From IMG/VR virus record IMGVR_UViG_3300033179_000004, positions 1 to 45,655 of that record: 45,655 bases of DNA, one strand, 5' to 3'. This DNA is from a virus. A model generated the notes under the pieces. The model saw nothing but the letters and a program-made list of their open reading frames with translations, was not told the origin of the DNA and ran no database searches. This document shows, piece by piece, positions 3,554-45,655 of this stretch; within the stretch, counting starts at the first letter, position 1; every line of letters starts with the position of its first letter. A program made the position numbers and the translations under genes.

Positions 3554-3898
3554 TTAGGCGTGGCCTGCGGTGTGGTGAATGTCTCCACTCGCTCGTTCGA
3601 TCTTATGCTTGGCACCATCAAGCATGGAGGTCACGGTCTTGTCGTCGGTGTCGTTCGAGACGAGACCTTGAACGTCAGGATGATGATCCTGCCAAACCAA
3701 TAGCGCGAAACGCACGTCGTTCCTGTGCGAGTTCAAAATTGTGTTGAGTAGCATCGCCACCGACATCACATGATCATGGTCGTTCGGGTTAAAGTCAGCA
3801 GGGTCTTTCATCACTCGCTCCCTCATTACTAGCAGGTACGCAATTGTCAGCATCGCGCCAATCCAGATCAGCATCAGATTGAACGCGAATTCTCGCAT
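3554..3898 (-). CDS. Hypothetical membrane protein (N-terminal TM, His-rich)
   Basis: N-terminal hydrophobic helix LMLIWIGAMLTIAYLLV. Its start overlaps the upstream stop by 1 nt. Confidence 0.5.
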   Translation of the reverse strand: MREFAFNLMLIWIGAMLTIAYLLVMRERVMKDPADFNPNDHDHVMSVAMLLNTILNSHRNDVRFALLVWQDHHPDVQGLVSNDTDDKTVTSMLDGAKHKIERASGDIHHTAGHA

Positions 3899-4197
3899 CA
3901 GGCCGTTCCACTCTGTTCGGGTTGCCCCTCGAAACGCGCGATCTGTTCCTTCATTGTGGCGACGATATCGGCGCGGTTCGCGTTAGACACATAATTAGCA
4001 CGTCCGCCCTCGCCGAAGGGAAACACCATCAGCACAAAGCCGACCTTGCGATGTTCTCCCCGCAAATCACCGTTGAAGAGGTGATCCATCTGACGAGCCA
4101 GGAATTCCATCTTGCCGTGATACTCGGCATCAACAGGCGCATCGCCTAACGGTGCCTGCTTATGCGCTTCTCTTGCGCGGCGCTCTTTCTGGTTCAT
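3898..4197 (-). CDS. Hypothetical protein (99 aa)
   Basis: Internal ATG at 4197 with a purine-rich upstream sequence. The longer ORF-track start adds a low-complexity extension. Confidence 0.45.
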   Translation of the reverse strand: MNQKERRAREAHKQAPLGDAPVDAEYHGKMEFLARQMDHLFNGDLRGEHRKVGFVLMVFPFGEGGRANYVSNANRADIVATMKEQIARFEGQPEQSGTA

Positions 4198-4435: not shown

Positions 4436-5076
4436 TCCGCAGGAATTAGCTTCATAGCGCGTTCGATATAACGGTCCAATTCCTCCGGCGCACCGTCGCC
4501 TTCGTCGGCGGCAACCTTGCGCAGATAGGGCAGGCCCTTGTCGATGGCGGTGAGGATTTCGGCGCGGGTGGCGGTGCGGCCTTCCTTAAACCAAAGCAGT
4601 TCGACGGGCGGCCCGATCTCGAACAACGCGCCCTTTGGCGTGTTGACCGGCTTGAATGTCTTGGTCATCCACAACCCCGTCGCGCCGGGATTGTGCTGGA
4701 TCATGATGCCGGGCACGGTCTCGCCTTGGTTCATCGAGGCGGCTTCGTTGCGGCGCATGTTGGGGCGGGCGAGGAACGGGCAGGCCTGAACGGCATAGAG
4801 GCCGCATTCGCGGTGACTTGGCGGCTCGCTGGATACCCGGTTGATCGAACACATCGGCCCGATGACGAAGCACTTGAAGCGGCCCATTGGCTGGCCGCAA
4901 ATCCAACAGAGGTTGCGGCGATAGGCCTCGGCGATCTTGCGCGGGTCTAGATTGACGAAATCCCACTTACCATCAATGAGCGAAACGAACCACGGGACCG
5001 GGAAACCACGTTCTGAGATCGGACGCCTTGCCAGTCGCGCTGGCAAGGGGATTTCGGCAATCGACGCATTCAACAT
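4432..5076 (-). CDS. Conserved-looking Cys-rich hypothetical protein (214 aa)
   Basis: RGFPVPWF...CWICG...EPPSHRECGLYAVQACPFL resembles a putative metal-binding Cys/His pattern. No family is named with confidence. Confidence 0.55.
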   Translation of the reverse strand: MLNASIAEIPLPARLARRPISERGFPVPWFVSLIDGKWDFVNLDPRKIAEAYRRNLCWICGQPMGRFKCFVIGPMCSINRVSSEPPSHRECGLYAVQACPFLARPNMRRNEAASMNQGETVPGIMIQHNPGATGLWMTKTFKPVNTPKGALFEIGPPVELLWFKEGRTATRAEILTAIDKGLPYLRKVAADEGDGAPEELDRYIERAMKLIPAE

Positions 5077-5864: not shown

Positions 5865-6516
5865 TGGTTGCCTCCGCTACTTGCGTCGCGCCGTTGCCGT
5901 TTTTCGGTGCGGGTGTTTCGATCATTTCATATTCGCCATCGGCGACACGCTTGATCAGCTTCTTGTCCAAGCAGTCTTTGATGGCGGGCGAGGCGGACGC
6001 GCGCGGGCGACCGTCCTTTTCAAAGCCGTCTTTGATCTGCTCGGTAGTGATGTGACCATGCTTGCGCTTGATCAGACGCATGATCAGGCCGGTGTGGGGG
6101 ACGGTGTAGCGGTTCTGTGTGTCGCCCTTTGGCTTCGCCTCTTTCTTCGGTGCGGCGATGTGTTTGACATCAGCGCGGGCATAGTTGCCGGAACCAAGTT
6201 TTTTGAGAACGCCCGCCTCAACCAGTTCGGCAAGGGCTGGATAGGCTGCGCTACCGTTGCCGCGTCCGGTGTTACGAAAGTGATTAACCGCGTCGATGGC
6301 CTTGAACGTCGGATGGTCCTCTGTCCACGCCTTCAAGTGGTCTGGCGAACGGACATCATGCTTGACCTTTTCAGCGAAGGCCAAGACATCGGTCATCAGT
6401 TCAAAGTTGATATTGGTCAGGCCCATTTTCGTGAGTTGGGCGATGATCGGACCCAAGTCCGAGACCGCGACCTCGCAACTAAGTCGAAACCGGTCCACCG
6501 TTGGTAATTTTGGCAT
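5857..6516 (-). CDS. Hypothetical protein with two winged-helix-like segments
   Basis: ATG at 6516 is preceded by AAGGGGA at 7 nt spacing. It is the first gene of the 6516->3554 minus-strand operon. Confidence 0.5.
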   Translation of the reverse strand: MPKLPTVDRFRLSCEVAVSDLGPIIAQLTKMGLTNINFELMTDVLAFAEKVKHDVRSPDHLKAWTEDHPTFKAIDAVNHFRNTGRGNGSAAYPALAELVEAGVLKKLGSGNYARADVKHIAAPKKEAKPKGDTQNRYTVPHTGLIMRLIKRKHGHITTEQIKDGFEKDGRPRASASPAIKDCLDKKLIKRVADGEYEMIETPAPKNGNGATQVAEATNG

Positions 6517-6753
6517 TGCGAAGTCCCCTTGCACTTATATGCCATTTTGGCAGGAATTTTGCGATACACTCCATCGTGCGTATTTTTTCGGATAGTGGAG
6601 GCTAGGCGTCCGTTTTACGAATGTCCATCCCAAAGTCCGATGCCCGACTTAGATGCGAGGGCGATTACTCCCCTCACTCAAACAGTGTGCAGCGAGTTCG
6701 TTCCCGAACACAACCTCAATCTTTTCAATACCAATTGCAGCAATTTCCCGGCG

Positions 6754-7721: not shown

Positions 7722-7796
7722 TGGTGCCCGGTAGCGGGATTGAACCGCTGACCTCGTCATTACCAATGACGCGCACTACCACTGTGCTAACCGGGC
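7722..7796 (-). tRNA. tRNA-Thr (anticodon GGT), full length with encoded CCA
   Basis: Hand-folded cloverleaf: acceptor GCCCGGT/ACCGGGC, D stem GCAC/GTGC, anticodon stem CGTCA/TGACG with loop TTGGTAA, T stem AGCGG/CCGCT with loop TTCAATC. Confidence 0.9.
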
Positions 7797-8370: not shown

Positions 8371-9555
8371 CTAAGCCGCGACTTTCAGATCGTTTCGTTT
8401 GCCGGTGCCCGCCGCCAGCTTGTGCGCCCATGCCAGCGGGTCGAGCATCCACGGCGCGTTCGCCCATGCGTCGATCACCGGCAGGGTGTTGATTTCTTCG
8501 ATAAGCTTTTCCGGGGTGATGTGGGTATAGCGGCGGCTCATGTCGCTATCGTCCTTGGCGTGCCCCATGATCACGTCCTTGATCAGCGTATGAACGCCGT
8601 TCATCACCAATTGCGAGGATACCGTGTGCCGCCCGGTATAGGGCGCGATGTCGGTGATCCCCGACCGCTTGCGCGCCCCCTTGATCGCCGTTTTCATTTG
8701 GCCACCGCCTTGGCCTTCCTCATCCTTCGGCTCATAGGGGACGCCGCGCGGGGTCCTAAACAGGAAGCCGCCGCGCTTCATCAGGCCGGTGAACAGGGGA
8801 ACCAAAACCTCATGCATCGGCACGCCACGGGGTTCGCCGCTCTTGCTCGCGGGGAGGGTGATCCATCGTTCCCTGATGTTTACCTGATCGGCTTCCAGCG
8901 TGAATAGTTCGATGGGCCGCATGCCGGTATAGAAAAACGTCGTCATCAACATGGCGGGGGCGGGTGACATCGCCAGCACGAACTTTGCGGCGCGGTCATA
9001 GGTGGTTGCCGTGGTCCCGGCGCGGACCTTGGTGTTGAGGAATTTCAACATCGTGCCTTTCGGCTTGCGCGGTCGCCTCCAATCGCGCTTCTCACACCAA
9101 CCGTCACCTTGGGCATGGTTCCAGACTGCAATGAACGGCGCGTGGCATTGCCGGTTGCGCGTCAAATAGGAAGTGTTGGGGTATAACTTCGCGGCAGCGG
9201 CGTCCAATTCGGATTGCGTGATGGTGTTCAAGACGCGGTCGCCGAACAGGCCCATCAAGCCATCATATTCCCCGGTAGCCGGATCAAGGGCACCAAGGAA
9301 GCGCGGCGATCCGCCAGTGCGGTCGCGACCTCCGGTCCCTAGATAAAGATCGACCGCATCCTTGAAGGTCTTGGTTGATGCCGGGCCGTGGATTACTTCC
9401 TTGAGGCATTCGCCCTGGTATTTTGCGAGGAGTTTTTGCGCGGCTTTTTGATCGGAAGTCTTTGTAGATTGGTGTACTTCCTTGCCGTTGAAGTCGGTGC
9501 CCCGGATGACGAAGTTGCCTTTTCCGGGTGTCCGCTGCCAAAGGTAGAGGGCCAT
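8371..9555 (-). CDS. int: Tyrosine recombinase / phage integrase
   Basis: The C-terminal ...YTGRHTV...IMGHAKDDSDMSRRYTHI supplies R, H-x-x-R-like and Y catalytic residues. Start taken at ATG 9555; a TTG at 9570 is also possible. Confidence 0.85.
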   Translation of the reverse strand: MALYLWQRTPGKGNFVIRGTDFNGKEVHQSTKTSDQKAAQKLLAKYQGECLKEVIHGPASTKTFKDAVDLYLGTGGRDRTGGSPRFLGALDPATGEYDGLMGLFGDRVLNTITQSELDAAAAKLYPNTSYLTRNRQCHAPFIAVWNHAQGDGWCEKRDWRRPRKPKGTMLKFLNTKVRAGTTATTYDRAAKFVLAMSPAPAMLMTTFFYTGMRPIELFTLEADQVNIRERWITLPASKSGEPRGVPMHEVLVPLFTGLMKRGGFLFRTPRGVPYEPKDEEGQGGGQMKTAIKGARKRSGITDIAPYTGRHTVSSQLVMNGVHTLIKDVIMGHAKDDSDMSRRYTHITPEKLIEEINTLPVIDAWANAPWMLDPLAWAHKLAAGTGKRNDLKVAA

Positions 9556-9722
9556 CGCTGAATTTCCCAAATTGATCGAATGTCGGTTTCCGAAAAAAGC
9601 AGATCACGACCAAATGTGGAACAGAGGCCGTGCTTCTTGGCAACCTTTGCCACCGCGCGCGGTGATTGTCTTAACTGTTCGGCGGCTTCTTTCAAGGTGA
9701 ACACGGTACCTATCACCATCAA
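9393..9722 (-). CDS. Excisionase/AlpA-like HTH protein (ORF tail overlaps the int 5' end out of frame)
   Basis: Strong AGGAGG 7 nt upstream of the ATG. FTLKEAAEQLRQSPRAVAKVAKKHGL is MerR/Xis-type HTH-like. No stop occurs until 9393. Confidence 0.5.
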   Translation of the reverse strand: MMVIGTVFTLKEAAEQLRQSPRAVAKVAKKHGLCSTFGRDLLFSETDIRSIWEIQRWPSTFGSGHPEKATSSSGAPTSTARKYTNLQRLPIKKPRKNSSQNTRANASRK

Positions 9723-11242: not shown

Positions 11243-11420
11243 ACTCGCCACCAGCCAGCCCGAAACCGATCTCCAAAAACGCTTGCTTCGTATCCGCACC
11301 GACACGCGGGAGTTGGCCGCGCTGACGCAAGCGGAGGCTCGCGCGATCTATGAGCAATTAGAAGCCGCGCGCGACATGATCTCATTTGTATTGGATCGCG
11401 CCGATGGCAAAAATTCCTAA
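11202..11420 (+). CDS. Hypothetical protein (72 aa)
   Basis: GAAGGTG Shine-Dalgarno upstream of the ATG. Confidence 0.45.
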   Translation: MPNRSIKRSRPKIELATSQPETDLQKRLLRIRTDTRELAALTQAEARAIYEQLEAARDMISFVLDRADGKNS

Positions 11421-11904
11421 CATCGATCAACTCCGCATCGAAATCGACACGCTGATACGGGATCATCCCGAACTCGCGGATGATGTCGTCGCCTTGCTGG
11501 ACATGCTGGAAGGCCAAACCGATCTATTCGAGGCGCTGGCGATGCTTGGCCGTGCGCTCGACAACACCAAACTGTTGCGGGAAGGGATAGCCGCCCGGCT
11601 TGAGGAACTATATGCCCGCGAAGGGCGGTTTGAGGCGCGCGACAAATACATCCGCAATATGATTTTCAAGCTAATGGAGAGTTCGCAGTTGCGGAAGTGC
11701 GAACTGCCGGAAGTCACCTTCTCGCTGCGCAACAACCCGCCGCGCGTGGTCGGCGATGCCGATCCGGCGAGCCTGCCGGACGATCTCGTCAAGATCACCC
11801 GCGCGATTTCCAAAACCAAAATCAAGGAAGCGCTTGAAGCCGGGCGCGTGGTTGAGGGCTTCGCACTGAGTAACAGCCCGCCCTCATTGGTGGTGAGGGT
11901 CTGA
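11404..11904 (+). CDS. Siphovirus Gp157-like protein
   Basis: The C-terminal ...LPEVTFSLRNNPPRVV...KIKEALEAGRVVEGFAL pattern is typical of the Gp157 family. Confidence 0.55.
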   Translation: MAKIPNIDQLRIEIDTLIRDHPELADDVVALLDMLEGQTDLFEALAMLGRALDNTKLLREGIAARLEELYAREGRFEARDKYIRNMIFKLMESSQLRKCELPEVTFSLRNNPPRVVGDADPASLPDDLVKITRAISKTKIKEALEAGRVVEGFALSNSPPSLVVRV

Positions 11905-12014
11905 TGTCTTGGCCTAGCTTCCTATTGGGAGTGATGACCGGCGTCACGCTTGGCGTGCTGTTCGTGATGATGGCGCAACTTGGCTCCCGTGCCGATAAGC
12001 GCGACCGAAGGTGA
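11904..12014 (+). CDS. Mini-ORF, single-TM peptide (36 aa)
   Basis: TGATG coupling to the upstream stop. MSWPSFLLGVMTGVTLGVLFVMMAQLG followed by a basic tail. Confidence 0.35.
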   Translation: MSWPSFLLGVMTGVTLGVLFVMMAQLGSRADKRDRR

Positions 12015-12018
12015 AACG

Positions 12019-12681
12019 ATGCCATTCTCCCAGGAACAACTCGACCTCTTGAACGCTCCACTGTCGCGCGCTGTCGTCAAGGAACGCGAGCAAGCTAGGC
12101 GCAGGTTTAGCTATGTTGAAGGCTGGTTCATGATCGCCGAAGCCAACCGTATTTTCGGCTTCGACAAATGGGCCTGCGACACCATCGAAACCAAATGCGT
12201 CGTTGAGAAGGATCGGCTGATCGGCAAGCAGGCGTTGCCCGGCTATGGCGTCACCTATACGGCGCGGGTGCGCATCCACGTCACCGTGGGCGATATGCAG
12301 TTATTCCGCGACGGTGTCGGCGCGGGTCACGGCATCGATCAGGATTTAGGTCAGGCACACGAAAGCGCGCTCAAAGAAGCGGAGACCGACGCCTTCAAGC
12401 GCGCAATCCGGACGTTCGGCAATCCGTTCGGCCTAGCGCTCTATGACAAGGAACAGGTCAACGTCGCCGACGAACCCGAAGAACCCGACGCCCGCGCGAA
12501 ATATATGGATGAATGCAAACGGAAGATCGCCACCTTCCCCGACAATTCAACCTTGGCGCTGACCTGGTGGAACGATCCCATCAATCATCAAGCCCGTGAC
12601 GATTGGCTGTTGCCGCCCGACCGGCTTGAACTGCAAGCGCTCGTTAAAGCCAAACTGCCACCGCGAGACATGAACACATGA
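12019..12681 (+). CDS. Rad52/Rad22-family single-strand annealing protein
   Basis: FSYVEGWFMIAEANRIFGFDKW and KEAETDAFKRAIRTFGNPFGLALY are hallmark segments. GAAGGTGA Shine-Dalgarno. Confidence 0.75.
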   Translation: MPFSQEQLDLLNAPLSRAVVKEREQARRRFSYVEGWFMIAEANRIFGFDKWACDTIETKCVVEKDRLIGKQALPGYGVTYTARVRIHVTVGDMQLFRDGVGAGHGIDQDLGQAHESALKEAETDAFKRAIRTFGNPFGLALYDKEQVNVADEPEEPDARAKYMDECKRKIATFPDNSTLALTWWNDPINHQARDDWLLPPDRLELQALVKAKLPPRDMNT

Positions 12682-15662: not shown

Positions 15663-15917
15663 TCAGATGCGCAAATCTTCCGGCTTGGTTTTGGTTTTGA
15701 TCATCAGCGAAACCAGGTAGCCGACCGACATGGGGACAACGTTTTCCCCGCTGATCCAAGAGCGCACCGCGCGACCCCCGACCCCGATCAAGCGGGCAAA
15801 GGCCGATTGACTGATTTCGATGTCCGCCAAGGCTATCGCGAGTTCGTCACCGGACATCGGTTCGGCAGTCTCCGCAAAGCGCATTGGCTCGCGTTCTTTT
15901 TTCTTTGGCTTTTTCAT
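15663..15917 (-). CDS. XRE-like HTH protein (84 aa)
   Basis: [24 protein letters not shown] is an HTH motif. ATG at 15917 forms an ATGA overlap with the recombinase stop. Confidence 0.6.
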
Positions 15918-16561
15918 GCTGTCCTCAATCGCTCGCAAAGCCGCCTGACGGTTTGGGACTGCCACTTGCGGCCTTGAGGCGTGGCAATGCCGCGTTCATT
16001 TAAAATGAAAGCAATGCGCCGCGACGGTAGGTTAATCAGCGGCCAAACGATGTCGCGAAGGCGTTCGGCGAACTCACCGGCAAATTGAGCGTTTACCTTG
16101 GCCTGTCTCGCGTTGCCAAGCACAACGCCGCGCGCCTTCGCGGCAGCCAGGGCAAGCTTGGTCCGCTCGCCGATCATGCGGCGCTCTTTCTCGGCGACGG
16201 CAGCATAAATATGCAACATGAACGGATCGACGTTCGCGCCCAACTCGCAGACGATGAACGGCACGCGGTTAGACATCAGGCCAGCGATAAACGCGACATC
16301 GCGCGACAGCCGGTCAAGCTTATGAATGATGACCGGGCATTTCAGTTTCTTGGCGGCATCCAATGCAGCGGCCAATTGCGGGCGACGCTCTAGCGCGTCG
16401 TTACCCTTGCCGGTTTCGATCTCAGAGAACGCGGAATGCACCGCATAGCCTTCGACCGCGCAAAAGGCATCGATGGCGGTTTGTTGCGCATCAAGGCCCA
16501 AAGGCGCTGGCGCTCCCTTGCGGGCCTTGGAAAGTCTGCGGTAGGCAATGGCTGGTTTCAT
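15914..16561 (-). CDS. Serine recombinase (resolvase/invertase family)
   Basis: AYRRLSK catalytic Ser context, plus HKLDRLSRD and [12 protein letters not shown] motifs. C-terminal [21 protein letters not shown]. Confidence 0.8.
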
Positions 16562-17256: not shown

Positions 17257-17329
17257 TTCAGTTCCCCTTGCAGCGCTTGATTGCGCCAAATCACCATAGG
17301 CGTTTAAGCCCTAAGCCCGCAAGTGAAAT

Positions 17330-17432: not shown

Positions 17433-18062
17433 ATGCGCGTTTTGATAGGCTGCGAGCGCTTTGGCAGGGTTCGGCAGGCATTCCGCGCGTTAGGTCATGA
17501 CGCATGGTCCTGCGACCTCGTTCCGGCGCTCGACGGCAGCCCGCACCATCTGCAATGCGACGTTCTGACGGTGCTAGGGCAGGGTTGGGATTTGGCGATA
17601 TTCCATCCCGATTGCACGTATCTGTGCAACTCAGGCGCAAAGCATCTTTATCGGGGAATGAACAAGGCCAACGGGCCGGACCCCAAGCGCTGGCGCGACA
17701 TGCGCAAGGGCGCGCGGTTTTTTAAAACCTTGTTAGACTGCGATATTCCAAAGGTAGCGGTTGAAAATCCCATCATGTTGGGATGTGCCAAGGCGATTAT
17801 TGGCCGCGAGCAAAGCCAGATCATTCAGCCTTGGATGTTTGGCGACCCCGAAACCAAAGCGACCTGCCTATGGTTGCGCGGCCTGCCGCTGTTGATCCCG
17901 GTCTATCCGCAATGGGATGATTGCAGGCGGGCGCACAATCTGCCGCGCGGTGCCAAGCCCAAGCCGGTGGTTCATTTCGCCTCACCTGGTCCCGACCGGC
18001 GCAACATTCGCAGCAAAACCTATCCGGGGATCGCGCAAGCGTTCACCCAATGGGCCGCATAA
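17433..18062 (+). CDS. Short C5-cytosine-DNA-methyltransferase-like protein (orphan)
   Basis: VLIGCERFGRV (motif I-like), FHPDCTYL (PC-motif variant with a D-C dipeptide) and VAVENP (ENV-like). No cognate nuclease is adjacent. Confidence 0.45.
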   Translation: MRVLIGCERFGRVRQAFRALGHDAWSCDLVPALDGSPHHLQCDVLTVLGQGWDLAIFHPDCTYLCNSGAKHLYRGMNKANGPDPKRWRDMRKGARFFKTLLDCDIPKVAVENPIMLGCAKAIIGREQSQIIQPWMFGDPETKATCLWLRGLPLLIPVYPQWDDCRRAHNLPRGAKPKPVVHFASPGPDRRNIRSKTYPGIAQAFTQWAA

Positions 18063-18065
18063 AAA

Positions 18066-18087
18066 AACCAGCCCGCAGGCTGGTTTT
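18066..18087. terminator. Bidirectional terminator between the MTase-like gene and the early operon
   Basis: AACCAGCC-CGCA-GGCTGGTT, flanked by an A-run and a T-run. Confidence 0.7.
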
Positions 18088-18114
18088 GAAATCTGAATTA
18101 CAGGCCACAGCCTG

Positions 18115-18714
18115 TTAATTGTTCTTTCGGGAAGTGTTAGCCGGGTGGGTTTGGCCTTCAAAGTCGATATGGGCAATGTTGCAATCGTGCCGCCTGCACC
18201 AGATTTGCAGGCCGCGCGGCGTCCATCCGACCTCAAGCGCGGCAAAGTCGCGCGGCGAAATATCGGCGGGCCTTTCGTCTAGGCATAGCGCGCAATGCAG
18301 ATAGGCGGCAATTTCGTTCGCGTTGCCGACATGCGGCGGTTTTGAAGTTGGCTCAAGAAACTTTCCGCAATCGGCACAGACGCCGCGCCCGGTGTCGCGA
18401 TGGTGGCAGGCCTCTTGCCGCTCTTTCACCGTCGCTTCAATGAACGCTAAGACCTCGTTCCAATCGTCCGTAGCGAGCGAGGGGCCGGACGTTTCTACCC
18501 CGTGATCCTGCGAGTTGACGATAAAGCGCGGGTGGGTGTCGCCGTATTCGCGCTTGGTAGGGTCCGCATAATCAACCCAAATGGTTAGGCCGTATTGATC
18601 GGATGTGAAGCTAGGGCAGGCGTCATTGTGCCAAGAGGTATCAACGAAACCCTTCGGAATTGCTGGCATGTCCTGCGGTCGAAAGTCTGGAAATTCGGCG
18701 AGGTATTCGCCCAT
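18115..18714 (-). CDS. Hypothetical Cys-rich protein (199 aa)
   Basis: The C-terminal half has CxxC/CxxC-like spacing (CADCG...CALC...C..HDC). It is the last gene of the early operon. Confidence 0.55.
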   Translation of the reverse strand: MGEYLAEFPDFRPQDMPAIPKGFVDTSWHNDACPSFTSDQYGLTIWVDYADPTKREYGDTHPRFIVNSQDHGVETSGPSLATDDWNEVLAFIEATVKERQEACHHRDTGRGVCADCGKFLEPTSKPPHVGNANEIAAYLHCALCLDERPADISPRDFAALEVGWTPRGLQIWCRRHDCNIAHIDFEGQTHPANTSRKNN

Positions 18715-18799
18715 TAGATTTGCTCCCTTGCTGGCATCTGTAACGGCCTAAGCCGGGTGATGGTTTCCCATGCCCGGCAAGGTCACGATGTCCGAAAGA
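18715..18799 (-). repeat. Intercistronic structured element, copy A
   Basis: Minus strand: GCCGGG-C-ATGG-GAAA-CCAT-CA-CCCGGC, then TTAGGCCGTTA and the SD CAAGGGAG. The outer stem is swapped relative to copies B-D (compensatory change). Confidence 0.7.
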
Positions 18800-19252
18800 T
18801 TACGCCGCAAGCGGCAAAACGTCATCCTCTATCAATTCTTCCACCGGTTCGGCGGGTGTCCAGTCCCAATGCGGAATTGCAATGGTGGCAATAAGCTTGC
18901 CGCGCTGCGAACTCCATCGCGTGCTGGTATTTTCAAAGAAATGCACTTCGCGAGCGCGACGTTCCCGCTTGCCGTTGACGTGCAAGGTATCGAACGCAAC
19001 AGAGGCAATCGCGTCATCGGGCAATGCCACGCCATCGCGCGCGGCCAACCAGCGAGCATAGAGCGCGGCGCGGCGCGTGTTATAGTCCAACGGGCTTTCC
19101 GCAGACTTGAGGCCATTGGTTGGCTTGCGGCTGATGCGCTGGCGCTTGCCATCGGCAATCCAGACCTTGCGCGGCATTGGGCCGTGAACGGGATTGCGCA
19201 CATCACCGCACGCGCGTTCGTTGTTAGAGAGAATGCCAATCACTTTCCACAT
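18800..19252 (-). CDS. Hypothetical protein (150 aa)
   Basis: ATG lies after GCAAGGGGAACAGCAA. Confidence 0.55.
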   Translation of the reverse strand: MWKVIGILSNNERACGDVRNPVHGPMPRKVWIADGKRQRISRKPTNGLKSAESPLDYNTRRAALYARWLAARDGVALPDDAIASVAFDTLHVNGKRERRAREVHFFENTSTRWSSQRGKLIATIAIPHWDWTPAEPVEELIEDDVLPLAA

Positions 19253-19343
19253 TTGCTGTTCCCCTTGCGAAGCGGAATGCCTCTAACGGCCTAAGCCCGG
19301 TAAAGCTTGCGCTTGCCGGGCATAGAACCAATGTCGGGAGGGA
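19253..19343 (-). repeat. Intercistronic structured element, copy B
   Basis: Minus strand: GCCCGG-C-AAGC-GCAA-GCTT-TA-CCGGGC, then TTAGGCCGTTAG and GCAAGGGGAA. Confidence 0.7.
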
Positions 19344-19868
19344 TCAGGCGTTAGCGCGGCGATCTGCGGCCATTCGCTCGTATGATGCATCCTTGGGAAC
19401 GCCAAAACACATCCGCGCGGAATTGTCGGGACCGATGGATGTTTCAAGTTCAAAGGTCAGGTATTTGTTAGCGCGATTGACGCGCAACAAAAGCGCATCA
19501 GCATGCAAGCCCGCATCAGCGACATAACCGTTAGTGAAGTGATCGGGCGCGAAGCAAAACGCGATTTCATCGCCCGCGCGAAGCGACTTGATCACGGTCG
19601 ATGCGTGGGTGTGCTGATTGTGATAGAGGTAAACCAACTCGAAGCACCGCGCCGCACCGCTTGCCAGCGCTTCGCGCCCGCGCGTGGTCTCTAGTCTCAC
19701 TTCGCAATTTTCCAGCTTGTATTCCTGATCTGTCTCAAATGGCGCGGCGTTATATGGCTTGCGCTTGATCAGGACCACGCGCCCGGTGGGGTTGCGCTCG
19801 CCTAGGTGAATGCAGATTTGATCTGCTTTGCGGAATGCTGCGATGTCGGTTTTGGTCAAGATTGCCAT
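19344..19868 (-). CDS. Hypothetical protein (174 aa)
   Basis: ATG at 19868 lies after GCAAGGGGAAACCAA. The 229-aa ORF-track version reads through repeat copy C. Confidence 0.55.
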   Translation of the reverse strand: MAILTKTDIAAFRKADQICIHLGERNPTGRVVLIKRKPYNAAPFETDQEYKLENCEVRLETTRGREALASGAARCFELVYLYHNQHTHASTVIKSLRAGDEIAFCFAPDHFTNGYVADAGLHADALLLRVNRANKYLTFELETSIGPDNSARMCFGVPKDASYERMAADRRANA

Positions 19869-19959
19869 TTGGTTTCCCCTTGCAAGCGCGGGATGCGCTC
19901 CTAACGGCCTAAGCCCGGTAACCTTTCGGTGCCGGGCATTGGTCGCGATGTGGTGAGGG
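19869..19959 (-). repeat. Intercistronic structured element, copy C
   Basis: Minus strand: CCCTCACCACATCG..., then GCCCGG-C-ACC-GAAA-GGT-TA-CCGGGC, then TTAGGCCGTTAG and GCAAGGGGAA. Confidence 0.7.
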
Positions 19960-20037
19960 TTAGAGGCTGAAATAAATGGTTTGGGTGATGGCAACGATTG
20001 CGAGGCCGATTGCCGCGACCATGATGGGATCAAGCAT
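19960..20037 (-). CDS. Mini-ORF, hydrophobic peptide (25 aa) coupled to the upstream gene
   Basis: ATGCTTGA overlap with the stop of the 20030..20347 CDS. MLDPIMVAAIGLAIVAITQTIYFSL. Confidence 0.3.
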   Translation of the reverse strand: MLDPIMVAAIGLAIVAITQTIYFSL

Positions 20038-20347
20038 TGGTTATCGTGATCTTGCCGGGCGAATAGACCGCGACAACGTGCGAGCCTGAAAACGTCGCCG
20101 CGACTTTCGCGCCAGTCACATCAATGATGGGCTTGGTATCCTTGCCCGATACGGTGCCGCGCGCGTCACGCGAAAGCTTGTCGAATTGCGCCGCGCTGAT
20201 CAGCGTCAAAACGAGGCTTTGCTTGTGCCATTCACGGGCAAAGAACTTGCCAACGGTGAAACCGTTATCGGCAAGCCTTGCGCCTTCAATCCAAATGCGG
20301 GTTCGCTCGCCCGCGCGCGTGGTGCCGAGTTTCGTTGTGATCTGCAT
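20030..20347 (-). CDS. Hypothetical protein (105 aa)
   Basis: ATG lies after GGCAAGGGGAACGCA. Confidence 0.55.
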   Translation of the reverse strand: MQITTKLGTTRAGERTRIWIEGARLADNGFTVGKFFAREWHKQSLVLTLISAAQFDKLSRDARGTVSGKDTKPIIDVTGAKVAATFSGSHVVAVYSPGKITITNA

Positions 20348-20437
20348 TGCGTTCCCCTTGCCGAAGCGGTGTTGCTTCTAATGCCTTAAGCCCGGTGATG
20401 CTTTCGCATGCCGGGCATAAGAGCGATGTGGAGAGGG
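20348..20437 (-). repeat. Intercistronic structured element, copy D (with a boxA-like CGCTCTTA)
   Basis: Minus strand: CCCTCTCCACATCGCTCTTAT, then GCCCGG-C-ATGC-GAAA-GCAT-CA-CCGGGC, then TTAAGGCATTAG. CGCTCTTA corresponds to plus-strand 20418-20425. Confidence 0.7.
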
Positions 20438-20680
20438 TTAGCGGCGCGCGAGCCATCGCTGCATTGAGGCCGCGTCATCGGGATGATAGCCGTTCTTGAA
20501 AACGTCCATCGCGGTGTGGCGACCTTCCGTCTCCACCATGCGCTCTGCGTTGCGCACCTGACCGGCGTGATCCTCGGAGAGCATGCACATCACCATCGGG
20601 TGACGGTTGACGTGGGCTACCAGCTTGCGGGCATTGACGAGCGAATTGCAGGCGATAAAGGCCTCTAGAAGTTTGTTCAT
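20438..20680 (-). CDS. Hypothetical protein (80 aa), first gene of the early accessory operon
   Basis: ATG lies after GCAAGGGGAACTACC. Confidence 0.55.
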   Translation of the reverse strand: MNKLLEAFIACNSLVNARKLVAHVNRHPMVMCMLSEDHAGQVRNAERMVETEGRHTAMDVFKNGYHPDDAASMQRWLARR

Positions 20681-20715
20681 GGTAGTTCCCCTTGCTGGCG
20701 TGATCGCCTGTCCGC

Positions 20716-20744
20716 ATCTAGGGCCTTATCACCTACCCTGTCAA
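20716..20744 (-). promoter_or_regulatory. Putative early leftward promoter TTGACA-N17-CTAGAT
   Basis: Perfect -35 hexamer on the minus strand. Operator-like O4, CGCAATAAATACG, lies at 20752-20764 just upstream of it. Confidence 0.45.
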
Positions 20745-20784
20745 TGGGGTTCGCAATAAATACGCAAAGAAAATTGGAGAGCAA

Positions 20785-20955
20785 ATGAAACGAGTATTTA
20801 AGTCACCGGGCAAGCGGACCGCTTTCTTCCGCGCGCTGATGCGCAGGACAGACAAGCGGGTCAGGGCAACGCGAATGTTGCGGGCATTGGACTATCAGCG
20901 GATAGCGGCTGGCCCATTGGCAAGCCAACCTAACGAGCGGCAGGGGCAGGGCTAG
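20785..20955 (+). CDS. Small Arg-rich protein (56 aa)
   Basis: GGAGA Shine-Dalgarno. MKRVFKSPGKRTAFFRALMRRTDKRVRATRMLRAL... The ORF is below the ORF-track cutoff. Confidence 0.4.
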   Translation: MKRVFKSPGKRTAFFRALMRRTDKRVRATRMLRALDYQRIAAGPLASQPNERQGQG

Positions 20956-20958
20956 GCT

Positions 20959-21432
20959 GTGGCACCGTTCCCGCTAACCACACTGCAAGCGCATGAGAAG
21001 CACGCAGGCGGCAGGCCTAGCGAGTACAGGCCGGAATACTGCGCGCTGCTACTGGAAAGCACCAAAGCGGAAGGCATCAGCCTTGCGGCGTTTGCCGGGG
21101 TTATCGGGGTGGCGAGGGATACGATTTATGAATGGCGGAAGCAGCACCGCGAGTTTTCCGACGCTTGCTCCCGCGCCAAGCCAATGCGGCAGCTATGGTG
21201 GGAGCGGAAGCTAGGTCGATCCCGCAAAGGCGCGGAGACTGCGGCCAGCATGTTCGCACTGCGCAACATCGATCCAACCGAGTGGCGTGACGTTCGGCAA
21301 GTGCAGCATCAGCATGCGCATGCGGTGCAGACCCTTACAGATACGCAGCTATTCGCCATTGCGGCAGGCAGCACAGCGGGTGATGCGGGTGTGATAGATG
21401 CAGACTATGAGGACATCAGCGCCACAAGCTAA
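20959..21432 (+). CDS. terS: Terminase small subunit-like protein
   Basis: GGRPSEYRPEYCALLLE...SLAAFAGVIGVARDTIYEWRKQHREFSDA is the N-terminal HTH pattern seen in many phage small terminases. Confidence 0.55.
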   Translation: MAPFPLTTLQAHEKHAGGRPSEYRPEYCALLLESTKAEGISLAAFAGVIGVARDTIYEWRKQHREFSDACSRAKPMRQLWWERKLGRSRKGAETAASMFALRNIDPTEWRDVRQVQHQHAHAVQTLTDTQLFAIAAGSTAGDAGVIDADYEDISATS

Positions 21433-24960: not shown

Positions 24961-27012
24961 GTGGCCCGACACGGTAGGTCTTTCCCTGGCAGGAAGCTAA
25001 GGGTCCGCCGCTTCACTGCGGGCCTCGTGCAAGGCACGCTGGCGGCGACGGAGGCGGGCGATACCGCGCTGCTTAACGGCACGGTCAGCACGACCGCCGT
25101 CACAGGCACGCTGATAGCGACGGAGACGGGCGATACCGCGCTGTTCAAGGGCAGCCCGTCAATTCCGCTTAACCCCATTTTCATCGGCGGTCATTCGCTG
25201 CTCACTAACATGCTCGCCTGCTACCTGCCCGGCGTGTACGGCGGGGTGCCGGTGTCGGGCACCGGTCCGACGCTGGCTAACGGCGCGGGCGGCGCGGGTA
25301 CGGTCGTCACGACGGTTGAAGGCCCGGCATCGCGTTCGGACACGCTTGGATCGGCAAGAGGCTTAACGGCGACAGCGCCAAGCGCCTTTAAGTCGTGGAC
25401 GAATTTCACTTTGCTGTGGCGCGGCGTGGTGATTGGCGCAGGCGACGGTTTCTGTCCGATAGTTGGCATCAGTATCGGTGACACTGACGTTTCGCCTTAC
25501 TTCATGCTCAACGTGTCTGGCAACAGTGCCAGCTACGCCAATGTAACGAGTTTTTATGGTGACGGCTCCGCTTCGGAGACGACTGGCACTTTCGACGCAT
25601 CTGGCCTGTATGGGCAAATCGTAGATTTTGTTGTTACTGCTACGGTTGGTGGCAGTGTAACGCTCTATGTAAATGGTGTGGCGGTTGGTGCCGTCGGATC
25701 GTTGTCGGCGATCTCCACATCCTCCAGCACTTCCAAGATTGTCGTCAACCAAGGCATCGATGCCACCAGCCGCTCTACGAACGCCAGCATCAATATGGCG
25801 TGCTTCTGGGATCGCGCGCTGTCATCAGGCGAAGTTCTGGGACTGCATAACGATCCCTATGCATTTCTACAGAGCGGAAGCGGAATTACTGGCACGCTCG
25901 CCGCAACTGAGGCAGCGGATGTCGCTGCTATCACCGGCTCGACAAGCTGGAACGCGACGCTAGTCGCGACTGAGGCGAGCGACACTGCCGCGCTCGCCGG
26001 GTCTGTCGGCTGGAATGCCGTTCTAGCCGCAACCGAAACCGCCGACACCGCAGCCTTGGTGGGCGCGGTGGATTGGCGCGCGGTGCTGGCGGCGACCGAA
26101 GCCGCTGACACGGCTGTCATCAATGGCGCTGTCGCTTGGACCGCAATACTCGCGGCGACCGAAACCGCCGACACCGCCAACATCAATGGCGGCATCTTTG
26201 CCACCGGCACGCTAGCCGCCATCGAAGCGGGCGACATCGCTGCCATCAGCGGCACAGTGGTCACGGCGGGCACGGTTTCGGGCGCGCTGGCGGCGACTGA
26301 GGCGGCGGACACCGCGCTGATCAATGGATCGGTTACGGGCATTGCGGGCACGTTGGTCGCCATCGAGGCTAGCGACACCGCCACCATTAATGGCAGCATC
26401 GCTTGGCAAGCGACCTTGGTGGCTACGGAGGCTGCCGACACTGCCGCCATCAACGGTTCTGTAAGCTGGCAGGCGATACTCGCCGCCATTGAGGCCGCCG
26501 ATACCGTCGCATTCAACGGGGTAGTGCGATGGATCGCGACACTGGTCGCGACGGAAGCCGCCGACACCGCTGCGATCAACGCGACTGTAGGCTGGACCGC
26601 AACGCTGGCCGCGACCGAAGCCGCAGACACTTGCATCATCAACGGCAGCGTTGCCGGTGCGGGTATCAGCGGCACCTTGGCGGCGACCGAAGCGTCCGAC
26701 ACGGCGGTCATCGTTGGGCAAGTCAACATCAGCGGCACGCTGATCGCGAGTGAAGCCAGCGACATCGCGGCCTTTGTCGGTCAGGTACTAGCCAACGTCA
26801 CCGGCACACTGGCGGCGTCCGAAGCCCAGGACAACGCGCTGATTATCGGCAGCGTGCCGTTCAACTATGTCGGCATACTGGCGGCGACCGAAGCGGCAGA
26901 CACGGCGGCCATTCGTGGCAACACAACGCCGCTCACGCCGCAGACCCGCGTCTGCCCCGGTGGCTGGGATTATGAATGGTACAACGGCAAGCCGTGGCGA
27001 CGGTGGGGTTAG
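24961..27012 (+). CDS. LamG/ConA-like lectin-fold domain protein with 18 copies of a ~21-aa (T/I/S)E-A-x-D-T repeat (fibre/adhesin candidate)
   Basis: GTG start after GGAGAGGG. Residues ~140-305 look LamG-like (LLWRG...VTLYVNGVAVG...ACFWDRALSSGEV). Repeats lie at aa 25-63 and 311-655. The C-terminal tail is Trp-rich. Confidence 0.65.
   Translation: MARHGRSFPGRKLRVRRFTAGLVQGTLAATEAGDTALLNGTVSTTAVTGTLIATETGDTALFKGSPSIPLNPIFIGGHSLLTNMLACYLPGVYGGVPVSGTGPTLANGAGGAGTVVTTVEGPASRSDTLGSARGLTATAPSAFKSWTNFTLLWRGVVIGAGDGFCPIVGISIGDTDVSPYFMLNVSGNSASYANVTSFYGDGSASETTGTFDASGLYGQIVDFVVTATVGGSVTLYVNGVAVGAVGSLSAISTSSSTSKIVVNQGIDATSRSTNASINMACFWDRALSSGEVLGLHNDPYAFLQSGSGITGTLAATEAADVAAITGSTSWNATLVATEASDTAALAGSVGWNAVLAATETADTAALVGAVDWRAVLAATEAADTAVINGAVAWTAILAATETADTANINGGIFATGTLAAIEAGDIAAISGTVVTAGTVSGALAATEAADTALINGSVTGIAGTLVAIEASDTATINGSIAWQATLVATEAADTAAINGSVSWQAILAAIEAADTVAFNGVVRWIATLVATEAADTAAINATVGWTATLAATEAADTCIINGSVAGAGISGTLAATEASDTAVIVGQVNISGTLIASEASDIAAFVGQVLANVTGTLAASEAQDNALIIGSVPFNYVGILAATEAADTAAIRGNTTPLTPQTRVCPGGWDYEWYNGKPWRRWG
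25891..26925 (+). repeat. Coding tandem repeat array, 16 units of ~63 bp (21-25 codons)
   Basis: Repeat cores TEAADV, TEASDT, TETADT and so on, counted at aa 316, 337, 358, 379, 400, 421, 446, 468, 489, 510, 531, 552, 576, 597, 620 and 643. Confidence 0.85.
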
Positions 27013-45147: not shown

Positions 45148-45655
45148 TGGCATTGCTCCCCAAGGTCAAAATCAAAACCGTCGTCAGCTTTCCCGCCGCT
45201 GTGTTCGGCGGAACCGGCATTGCCGTGCGCAAGGTGAACGGCAATTTTTACTTCGATCTGGATTATTCCGACTTTGCGGTGGTGTCCTCGATCCCGGCAG
45301 GCGATCTGCCAAACACCAATGTCCTAACCTACAACGTCGTCAATCAGGCCTATTTGCTCGCGCCCTATAGTAGCGGTGGCGGCGGCGGTGGTGGCGGCAT
45401 TTCCGAAGCCCCGGTCGATAGCACGCTTTACGGACGTATCAACTCGGGCTGGCAGCGAGTGCCTATCGGGGCTGACGCGCCCAACGATGGCGCGACCTAC
45501 GGACGCAAGAACTTAGGGTGGGTTTCTATAGCGACGACCGGCATGCTGTTGTCGGCCAACAACCTTTCAGACGTTGCCAATGCTGGCACGTCGATGCGCA
45601 ACCTGGGCGGCCTCGACCTCTCCAATCCGGTTTCGCTCACGGGTACGGCTACGCT
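45147..45655 (+). CDS. Tail fibre protein, N-terminal part (continues through the junction to position 815)
   Basis: ATG at 45147 (TAATG). I translated by hand and found no stop to the window end. A poly-Gly linker (GGGGGGGG) is present. Confidence 0.7.
   Translation, partial: MALLPKVKIKTVVSFPAAVFGGTGIAVRKVNGNFYFDLDYSDFAVVSSIPAGDLPNTNVLTYNVVNQAYLLAPYSSGGGGGGGGISEAPVDSTLYGRINSGWQRVPIGADAPNDGATYGRKNLGWVSIATTGMLLSANNLSDVANAGTSMRNLGGLDLSNPVSLTGTAT
45529..45655. repeat. Terminal overlap, copy 2 (identical to 1-127)
   Basis: Same 127 nt as the window start. Most simply an assembler k-mer overlap of a circular or circularly permuted molecule. Confidence 0.95.

Follow-up and report, generated by a model that had tools for sequence, protein, structure and literature searches.

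The 45,655-nucleotide (nt) virus record IMGVR_UViG_3300033179_000004 of IMG/VR (positions 1 to 45,655, hereafter the window) carries a minus-strand operon at 20680 to 18115, composed of five open reading frames (ORFs) of 80 to 199 amino acids and a 20-codon ORF, and all four spacers of this operon are filled by copies of one intercistronic element of about 91 to 97 nt. We found that the element is a strongly selected RNA structure of the sense strand, which lies at cistron junctions in register with the upstream stop codon, carries the ribosome-binding site of the next gene and marks the boundaries of a genomic mosaic. As to its function, we infer, at a little less than even confidence, that it is a portable module for mRNA punctuation, mRNA stability and translation start, which also provides a homology patch for cassette shuffling. 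Each copy comprises a stop codon, a large hairpin (P2), a Shine-Dalgarno (SD) sequence and a start codon, and three copies have a second hairpin (P3) before the SD. The genes of the operon and the four copies, with their covariance model scores in bits, are as follows.

20680-20438, minus strand: g1
20347-20030, minus strand: g2
20022-19960, minus strand: the 20-codon ORF
19868-19344, minus strand: g3
19252-18800, minus strand: g4
18714-18115, minus strand: g5
20345-20440, minus strand: copy D, from the g1 stop codon TAA (20440-20438) to the g2 ATG (20347-20345), 85.9 bits; P2 with basal helix 20385-20421 (-19.5 kcal/mol, z -5.0), P3 20363-20378, SD GCAAGGGGAA 20352-20361
19866-19962, minus strand: copy C, from TAA (19962-19960) of the 20-codon ORF to the g3 ATG (19868-19866), 54.9 bits; P2 19908-19943 with a 3-bp inner stem, P3 19884-19900, SD 19874-19883
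19250-19346, minus strand: copy B, from the g3 stop codon TGA (19346-19344) to the g4 ATG (19252-19250), 78.9 bits; P2 19290-19326, P3 19269-19283, SD 19259-19268
18712-18802, minus strand: copy A, from the g4 stop codon TAA (18802-18800) to the g5 ATG (18714-18712), 66.3 bits; P2 18747-18783 with the outer stem swapped to GCCGGG/CCCGGC, no P3, SD AAGGGAG 18723-18729

A first-pass annotation had placed the same element in every spacer of the operon, and the four copies were confirmed at those places. Its formula for the hairpin, GCCSGG-C-[3-4 bp]-GNRA-[3-4 bp]-YA-CCSGGC, holds in the window copies: the inner stems are ATGC/GCAT in D, ACC/GGT in C, AAGC/GCTT in B and ATGG/CCAT in A, the corresponding loops are GAAA, GAAA, GCAA and GAAA, and the outer stem of copy A is indeed swapped. 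When a hairpin-plus-tail pattern was allowed up to 3 mismatches, it retrieved three copies versus 0.00 expected from 100 shuffles, and copy C escapes the pattern only because its stem is 2 nt shorter. The covariance model, run over the 45.6-kb window, returned exactly four copies and no others. Rfam 15 contains no match to the element (only a tRNA in the window reaches the gathering score), a search of positions 18000 to 21000 at E ≤ 10 yielded nothing relevant, and no description of the element was found in the literature searched, all of which agrees with the annotator's view that this is not a described motif. That a stop codon opens each copy is likewise correct, except that copy C uses the stop codon of the 20-codon ORF rather than that of g2. 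The proposed order of stop codon, hairpin, spacer, SD and ATG was recovered as well, but the spacer described as variable is the P3 hairpin in D, C and B.

Folding resolved P2 into three tiers, namely, a basal helix of 4 to 6 bp, a U·U mismatch and then the two tiers of the formula; thus, both tiers recognized initially are real, but their count missed a third, basal one below the mismatch. This basal helix is CUUA:UAAG in copy D. The lambda boxA octamer CGCTCTTA, which had been noted in this copy 3 nt before the hairpin, is present exactly, but it ends 1 nt before the outer stem and forms the 5′ strand of the basal helix, pairing with UUAAGGC. Folded alone, the P2 hairpins of the four window copies reach -17.3 to -19.9 kcal/mol with z = -2.9 to -5.0. 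P2 is trailed by UUARG without a U-run and was not called as a terminator in the terminator scan, and a scan for the sigma-70 consensus, the only promoter scan applied, identified no promoter in any element copy. A hidden promoter was considered since TAGAAG/TAGAGG after P2 resembles TAGATG/TAGAAC in the promoter-like regions by g1 and the resolvase gene, and it was rejected for want of a suitably spaced -35 box.

Relatives of the element were searched for in IMG/VR and metagenomes with structure-aware patterns that left the inner stem free, vetted by their flanks and then collected with a covariance model (R1); L-numbers below are labels of the retrieved contigs or loci. In its final form, the family has 37 matches on more than 20 contigs of viral or metagenomic origin, and 35 of these copies are distinct. 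The family alignment was fitted to the covariance model, inner-stem pairing having been left free in detection, and a plain MAFFT alignment of ten copies gave the same columns. P2 folds at -17 to -24 kcal/mol in all 35 copies, 95% of the P2 cells in the family alignment are paired, and compensatory changes occur at 11 of the 16 pairs (83 cells). None of 500 shuffles reached the observed pairing and covariation, and slid registers of P2 gave only 21 to 54% pairing. RNAalifold independently recovered the same 14 P2 pairs; these include 25 G·U cells versus 2 C·A cells, indicating that it is the sense strand that folds. The outer stem occurs as GCCCGG, GCCGGG, GGCCGG, GCGCGG or GCCCCG, each with its matching 3′ arm, and the basal CUUA:UAAG segment is 93 to 97% paired. 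Only the two most basal pairs are weak (about 66 to 71% paired), such that P2 consists of 13 to 14 well-supported pairs plus 2 weak basal ones, broken by the U·U mismatch and a 1x2 loop. Homologous phages therefore preserve the pairing, and the claim that selection acts on structure rather than on sequence became strong once 35 copies from other contigs were added.

Several unpaired positions are kept in the family too, including the bulged C (29/29 copies), the A of the YA loop (28/29), the U·U mismatch and the linker UAG. The terminal loops are GAAA in 12 copies and GCAA in 9, and the remaining 8 of the 29 have UUCG, CAUG, GCCA, GCGA, CGUG or longer loops; a GNRA loop is present in 22 of the 29. 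One pair of contigs shows how P2 may change. L014 (2590-2661) and L155 (10044-10115, the same as L192 1203-1274) are about 92% identical overall and identical over the 42 nt downstream of P2, and their P2 hairpins differ at two compensatory pairs and one loop base, five positions in all. The L155 version is the P2 of L150 and L161 as well, which suggests that copies of the element have undergone gene conversion with one another and did not change by stepwise mutation.

The element is tied to translation at both ends. All copies stand in the sense orientation, running from the stop codon of a real upstream ORF (60 to 330 amino acids) to an SD and a start codon. The distance from the stop codon to the outer stem is 22 to 25 nt in 34 of the 35 copies despite unrelated upstream genes; the base of the helix thus begins 17 to 20 nt past the stop codon, which is just outside the terminating ribosome, the footprint size of which is established. 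The post-stop spacer has YCC at its start, is G-poor and includes a (C/A)AUC box whose A and U are present in 28 of 29 copies. Further downstream, P3 is a second covarying hairpin: in the seven copies that can be aligned, 100% of it is paired, A-U to C-G and A-U to G-C exchanges occur, and 2 of 500 shuffles equaled this result. In other members of the family, the P3 hairpin has a different length.

The 3′ half of the element can be written as ...AAGGCC-N-UAGA-[hairpin]-GCAAGGGGAA-N5-8-AUG, and it was also found without P2 behind promoter-like sequences. Three such lone translation-initiation region (TIR) modules occur in the window:

20681-20735, minus strand: upstream of g1, with AAGGCCCUAGAUG, a GGCG-AUCA-CGCC hairpin and AGCAAGGGGAAC, no P2, homologous to the 3′ half of the element
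17257-17300, minus strand: upstream of ArdA, a GGCGC-AAUCAA-GCGCU hairpin followed by GCAAGGGGAA
16562-16600, minus strand: upstream of the resolvase/invertase gene, GGCCUAGAACAGCCUACCAGCAAGGGGAA, resembling the 3′ half of copy A

P2 is present only where an upstream cistron exists, and g1, ArdA and the resolvase gene are served by the TIR part alone. Because its 3′ half also stands alone, the element is a composite, in which a generic module for translation initiation is joined to a post-stop module. One SD sequence had been given for the element in the annotation; copy A uses GCAAGGGAGC, and GCAAGGGGAA is not confined to the element, as it also precedes g1, ArdA and the resolvase gene, with 14 matches versus 3.5 expected.

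It was observed, in addition, that the P3 loop ends in a C-rich run (AACACC, AUCCC or AUUCC) in about 9 of 12 comparable copies. Together with the GGGG of the SD 4 to 6 nt downstream, such runs could form an H-type pseudoknot masking the SD. The stretches of P3 loop and SD concerned are as follows:

20352-20378, minus strand
19874-19900, minus strand
19259-19283, minus strand

At the genome level, the elements mark mosaic boundaries in a hypervariable array. Among the relatives, 12 contigs with backbone genes have their elements at the same locus, in an array divergent from a terS-like gene, which is the left border of the array in all relatives holding backbone sequence. The resolvase gene lies downstream of the array wherever the sequence extends far enough (the window, L014, L021, L189, L192 and L205). 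In the window, these borders are the following:

20959-21432, plus strand: terS-like gene (phrog_309), divergent, left border of the variable array
15914-16561, minus strand: serine recombinase (resolvase/invertase), right border of the array

The genes between the borders are almost all different from contig to contig. g1 to g5 match no family in Pfam or PHROGs, all being ORFans, and no homologue of them was found in the arrays of relatives, except for g4 in L205. Where cargo families are common to relatives, as is the case for F3 (L021 and L014), F4 (L014 and L025) and F6 (L014 and L018), the neighbors across the element are different, and an element comes after g4 in the window and after its homologue in L205, with a different gene beyond it in each. 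Nucleotide homology around the common cargo genes stops inside the element. Within the arrays, the elements are the sole islands of similarity, with 80 to 96% identity over 45 to 92 nt, and TerL, portal and resolvase are only 67 to 76% identical between relatives. In L170 and L230, ArdA itself is cargo and comes immediately after an element.

Some junctions in relatives lack the element, and the idea that it is conserved together with its gene is ruled out by two cases: the g3 homologue in L002 (74% identical) has no element and sits between promoter-like and terminator repeats, and the g5 relatives in L004 to L011 are also without one. The repeat at the L002 junctions (3860-3995, 4528-4668 and 6479-6540) comprises a terminator hairpin, the promoter-like CGCGCTTGAC(A/T)...ACGTACTAACTAATGGATATC, a small GC hairpin and an SD. 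As judged from its sequence, it surrounds the same cargo gene with a promoter/terminator cassette that resembles a promoter-early stem-loop (PeSL) cassette of T4-type phages.

The operon ends at the following terminator.

18059-18089: operon-ending canonical terminator, a hairpin plus U-run, AAAACCAGCCTGCGGGCTGGTTTTTTT on the minus strand, recognized by reading the sequence

This terminator is convergent with the methyltransferase gene and has no element copy at its site. The terminator scan did not list it and listed instead a weaker plus-strand hairpin at 18100-18115; Rfam matches overlapping it are weak and subthreshold. For the ArdA and resolvase units, the same scan did detect canonical terminators, at 17366-17347 and 16654-16630, and it found no strong internal terminator in the operon. 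Given that the operon terminator is visible in the sequence, we reasoned that the phage uses canonical terminators where needed.

The reading we favor for the element runs as follows. Its post-stop part would comprise the stop codon, a 17- to 20-nt G-poor spacer with the (C/A)AUC box and the very stable three-tier P2, and its translation-start part the UAG linker, P3, the AAGGGG Shine-Dalgarno sequence and the start codon. On the polycistronic transcript, P2 would stay folded just past the footprint of the terminating ribosome, and P2 and P3 would act as mRNA punctuation, the hairpins blocking exonucleases and RNase E scanning. An endonuclease might cut at one of two conserved single-stranded sites, or RNase III might cut within P2, and each cistron would then be left as a separate piece of mRNA, structured at its ends and equipped with a ribosome-binding site of its own, so that its stability and translation would be independent of its neighbors. 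The module of about 90 nt would also be a homology patch for swapping accessory genes (ArdA-type and ORFan) between the terS-like gene and the resolvase, because this one module recurs from junction to junction and from one related phage to another. The Rad52-type annealase encoded by the phage is plausible machinery for exchange at patches of about 90 bp. RNase processing site, mRNA stabilizer and insulator, all three among the alternatives listed in the annotation, are where the evidence points.

Several points weigh against this reading. The RNA-processing step is entirely conjectural. If P2 were no more than a barrier to exonucleases, it would have no need of an invariant bulged C, YA A and U·U mismatch, or of a near-invariant GCCSGG stem; these features suggest a sequence-specific partner, one that the reading does not name, and this is its main weakness. 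By column reading, the conserved single-stranded sites match the Escherichia coli RNase E motif RN|WUU only partly, and RNase III canonically acts on longer duplexes than the 13 to 16 interrupted base pairs of P2. The last gene, g5, is without an element, as are some junctions of relatives, such that the element is not obligatory. Finally, breakpoints at the element would also be expected merely since no other sequence there is conserved.

The weakness just named would be met if P2 were the operator of a specific trans-acting RNA-binding factor of phage or host, either for nut-like antitermination reloaded at each junction or for translational or temporal repression of the array. This is unlikely in our estimation, although the invariant unpaired nucleotides and the near-invariant stem are what such a factor would recognize, the variable inner stem-loop behaves as a dispensable cap, a boxA-resembling CGC(N)CUUA adjoins the hairpin in about 11 copies, and GNRA loops prevail to the extent given above. 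The boxA-like segment is paired with UAAG, and in copies B, C and A of the window, the pairing is kept and the sequence is not; the loops are not fixed either. Furthermore, no copy stands upstream of g1, there is no strong internal terminator to override, four sites per 2.5 kb are unlike nut or put sites, and a Pfam comparison of more than 40 window proteins revealed none with an N-like, RNA-binding or RNase domain, which a small ORFan might nevertheless harbor. There is a slim chance, then, that a dedicated factor reads the bulged C, the A and the U·U mismatch, placing any gene between two elements under one phage-wide control, and that the same site marks the points of exchange. If true, this control could be processive antitermination reloaded per junction, timed translational shut-off or targeted cleavage, and P2 would be an RNA-level counterpart of integron attC or of the PeSLs for antidefense cargo. 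Equally doubtful is translational coupling or insulation, in which the post-stop tract or the C-rich P3 loop sequesters the AAGGGG SD, or a reinitiating ribosome relays through a short ORF in P2. The minimum-free-energy folds of D, C, B and about 17 of 27 family members do pair the tract, G-poor and with YCC at its start, with the SD, but this pairing is no better than that of composition-preserving tract shuffles and is missing in copy A and about a third of the copies, and the anti-SD closing helix was thus downgraded to a composition effect. The fixed distance from stop codon to hairpin, on the scale of the ribosome footprint, fits coupling too. As for the relay, the 5′ base of P2 holds AUG in 31 of 35 copies plus one GUG and one UUG (33/35 in all), and the frame from this codon ends at one of two conserved stop motifs in 30 of 35, being 10 codons long in 27-nt hairpins (stop at the basal UAA/UAG) and 12 codons in 25-nt hairpins (stop at the linker UAG); L014b and L192 lack the linker UAG, and there the frame continues into the downstream gene. 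However, the palindromic helix base CUUA-U-G...C-U-UAAG explains both AUG and UAA, the peptide is conserved no further than MPG, the frame has no SD, and the same SD module serves g1, ArdA and the resolvase gene without any upstream tract.

Two further explanations were weighed. The element might be an attC-like hairpin or cruciform for the neighboring serine recombinase, or a repeated pac/cosB-like site of the terS-like protein, and we regard this as very improbable. It always lies between the terS-like and resolvase genes, its cargo differs between relatives, its layout of conserved basal helix, extrahelical bases and variable terminal stem-loop resembles attC, and loops of the GCGAAAGC type are stable in DNA too. 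Yet the excess of G·U over C·A cells and the one UUCG loop favor sense-strand RNA, stop and start codons set the register of the element, which also includes an SD, and a double-stranded protein-binding site would not predict compensatory changes. Moreover, attC cores are not conserved, with GTT at the linker limited to about 5 of 29 copies, the last cassette lacks a site, and serine recombinases are not known to act on folded single strands. To the idea that the element is a selfish or neutral REP- or MITE-like repeat, spread in intergenic space without a role in expression, we give hardly any credence. A GC-rich imperfect palindrome repeated in intergenic regions has this appearance, element identity between contigs exceeds that of the coding backbone, which may reflect recent spread or gene conversion, and P2 is replaced between the L014 and L155 contigs. 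Against this, the element occurs in one orientation, at one locus per genome and exactly from stop to start, no RAYT or transposase was found in the window, and the structure-preserving substitutions indicate purifying selection on the fold. Nor, within the loci sampled, does it behave as a host REP-type repeat scattered over chromosomes, for no full copy was found among at least 120 listed bacterial-genome loci with the core pattern. Bypass of the T4 gene 60 type, with its stop codon and tetraloop hairpin, was also rejected: the hairpin lies 17 to 20 nt past the stop codon, and the next gene has its own SD and AUG.

The nearest known systems each share some features with the element. PeSLs of T4-type phages are conserved regulatory cassettes that run from stop codon to ATG and mediate the shuffling of ORFans; each consists of a strong sigma-70 promoter and a terminator stem-loop, making every gene its own transcription unit (PMC2839356, PMC4122927). 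The element likewise spans stop to ATG, has a stem-loop and an SD, flanks ORFans in a hypervariable region and marks exchange junctions. Unlike a PeSL, it lies inside one operon without a predicted promoter or terminator, and its hairpin covaries as RNA, keeps its bulges and stands in register with the stop codon. Operons such as malEF (the malE-malF REP), papBA (a 5′ hairpin) and Rhodobacter puf are reshaped by protective hairpins between cistrons and by RNase E sites beside 5′ hairpins (PMC5927463). Here, the similarity is in a stable hairpin without a U-run between cistrons and a single-stranded site beside it, a layout that fits endonucleolytic cleavage leaving structured, protected ends and that may recur several times per operon. 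However, the known cases are individual and operon specific, whereas the element is one family at every junction and across phages, with invariant unpaired nucleotides and a fixed stop distance. In its evolution the element resembles a PeSL, and its action on the transcript would be, at just under an even chance, that of a protective or processing hairpin between cistrons. In Cluster K mycobacteriophages, the SAS, an extended ribosome-binding-site motif, precedes many nonstructural genes and is itself preceded by a 17-bp inverted repeat (ESAS) in about half of the cases; arm departures in ESAS are reported not to support RNA pairing, and its authors favor a DNA-binding protein (PMC3203893). 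The element shares with these the single orientation and the conservation before unrelated genes, but it lacks the 13-bp GGGATAGGAGCCC motif, the sequences are unrelated, its arms covary, and it is tied to the upstream stop.

Other known sites were compared as well. The RNase III sites of the T7 early region are largely continuous duplexes of about two turns, with about 20 or more bp and an internal loop at the cleavage site. P2 is similar to them as a hairpin with an asymmetric internal loop between consecutive phage-operon genes, including antirestriction functions, whose cleavage would leave a 3′ hairpin on the upstream mRNA, but it has only 13 to 16 interrupted bp and no sequence similarity. 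Lambda nut consists of a single-stranded boxA (CGCUCUUA-like) and a short boxB stem with a GNRA-like loop read by an Arg-rich peptide; nut sites are promoter proximal, ahead of terminators, about one per operon and served by a cognate N-type protein. The exact octamer CGCTCTTA beside the GC-rich GAAA-loop hairpin of copy D accounts for the nut-like layout proposed initially, and that layout is not supported: the octamer is base paired and exact in one of the four window copies, the hairpin has three tiers, conserved bulges and varied loops, the element occurs at every junction and never in a promoter-proximal position such as ahead of g1, and no N-like protein was found in the proteins scanned. 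Integron attC sites have complementary RYYYAAC/GTTRRRY cores, fold on the bottom strand and act with an adjacent tyrosine recombinase, IntI. Like attC, the element lies at the 3′ end of promoterless cassettes in an array of one orientation with a recombinase gene nearby, keeps structure over sequence and has extrahelical bases and a variable terminal stem-loop. It differs in folding on the sense strand, in lacking a conserved RYYYAAC (GUU at the linker in about 5/29), in including the SD of the next gene and in its neighboring enzyme, a serine recombinase and not IntI, the tyrosine integrase being 10 kb away beside a tRNA gene. REP and BIME sequences occur in many host-chromosome copies, in both orientations, in association with RAYT; the element occurs in one orientation at one locus per phage, with no transposase found in the window. 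Thus, it lacks the defining features of PeSLs (promoter and terminator), nut, SAS/ESAS, REP, attC and every Rfam family.

What is new is an RNA family that unusually combines registration to the stop codon, a hairpin of three tiers whose bulges are invariant, a fused module for translation start and the role of a cassette linker. Conserved linkers at the boundaries of genes are a prediction of the modular theory of phage evolution, and, to our knowledge, concrete examples are rare apart from the PeSLs of T4-type phages. The element would be a second, unrelated type of linker, in temperate phages, and would provide both expression signals and recombination homology to any accessory or antirestriction gene landing between two copies. 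It constitutes a well-supported RNA family of 35 distinct members absent from Rfam, a sequence handle for finding variable accessory and antidefense arrays in metagenomic phage contigs, and a compact model of an operon-internal RNA structure that would insulate horizontally acquired genes. If a specific binding factor exists, it would also be a ready-made junction part for synthetic biology.

The window itself is a circularly assembled phage genome whose ends repeat over 127 nt, with an exact terminal repeat (1-127 = 45529-45655). The repeat is most likely an assembler overlap on a circular or circularly permuted genome rather than a biological direct terminal repeat, because the source is a k141 metagenome contig. 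Encoded in the window are TerL, portal, major capsid, tyrosine integrase, serine recombinase, ArdA, a DNA methyltransferase and the Rad52-type annealase. TerL is at most 43 to 45% identical in amino acid sequence to that of cultured phages (Microcystis phage Mwe-JY13 and Brucella phages), and the phage has no close cultured relative. A tRNA gene (7725-7796, 69.4 bits) adjoins the tyrosine integrase gene (8371-9570), a pair that implies a temperate lifestyle, possibly with a tRNA-associated attachment site. The annealase gene is the following:

11980-12681, plus strand: Rad52/22-family single-strand annealing recombinase, E = 1.2e-33

It follows a Gp157-family gene (11386-11904), and a PD-(D/E)XK nuclease is encoded elsewhere in the genome; the three look like a phage recombination module.

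Searches beyond the family gave little else. blastn of copy D against GenBank phages produced no match, and that of the 3-kb region matched only a short coding stretch of Rhodobacter phage RcSalem. With an exact-core search, the sole IMG/VR match to CCSGGCTTAGGCCGTTA (L001) was a chance match within a coding region. The listed bacterial-genome loci were all chance or coding matches, e.g., a recurrent CTTGCCGGGCAG...CACCGGGCTTAGC coding motif. In the form CTTCTTGCCGGGCAG...CACCGGGCTTAGC(A/G)CCCTG, it is found in unrelated bacteria (L028, L067, L073, L091, L117, L119, L127 and L136); this is protein-coding conservation that mimics hairpin arms and a source of false positives for pattern searches. 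A subfamily of the element is present in L148 (2244-2315 and 3148-3225), L158 (652-723), L160 (2097-2168) and L162 (862-933 and 1766-1840), on short contigs having none of the backbone genes of the window. Its members carry the box CCAUAACC instead of CAUCGC; their inner stems are palindromic and capped by CAUG or longer loops, their P3 has the form UAGGGA...UCCCUAA, and their A/C-rich leader, AACAGAACAGGAC, has no obvious SD.

Some minor features of the window were also noted. Each P2 arm has CCSGG and a methyltransferase gene is adjacent, and a role as restriction or methylation sites was rejected, as the window has 152 CCSGG sites versus 154.6 expected. The stop codon and the base before it pair with the linker UUA-N in all four window copies, as C-UAA:UUA-G in D and C, C-UGA:UUA-G in B and G-UAA:UUA-C in A, an apparent covariation, at the following sites:

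18800-18803 with 18746-18749, copy A
19344-19347 with 19289-19292, copy B
19960-19963 with 19905-19908, copy C
20438-20441 with 20380-20383, copy D

On inspection, this 4-bp pairing fails in most family members, and it is probably due to chance. The 20-codon ORF (19960-20022, minus strand) encodes the hydrophobic MVAAIGLAIVAITQTIYFSL and begins 8 nt past the g2 stop codon with no obvious SD; it may encode a genuine small membrane peptide, or else the stop codon came with the element. Elsewhere, a 683-amino-acid ORF on the plus strand (24961-27012), without a PHROG match, contains at least 12 to 14 diverged copies of a 63-nt (21-codon) repeat, and its product is probably a repetitive tail-fiber or adhesin-like protein.

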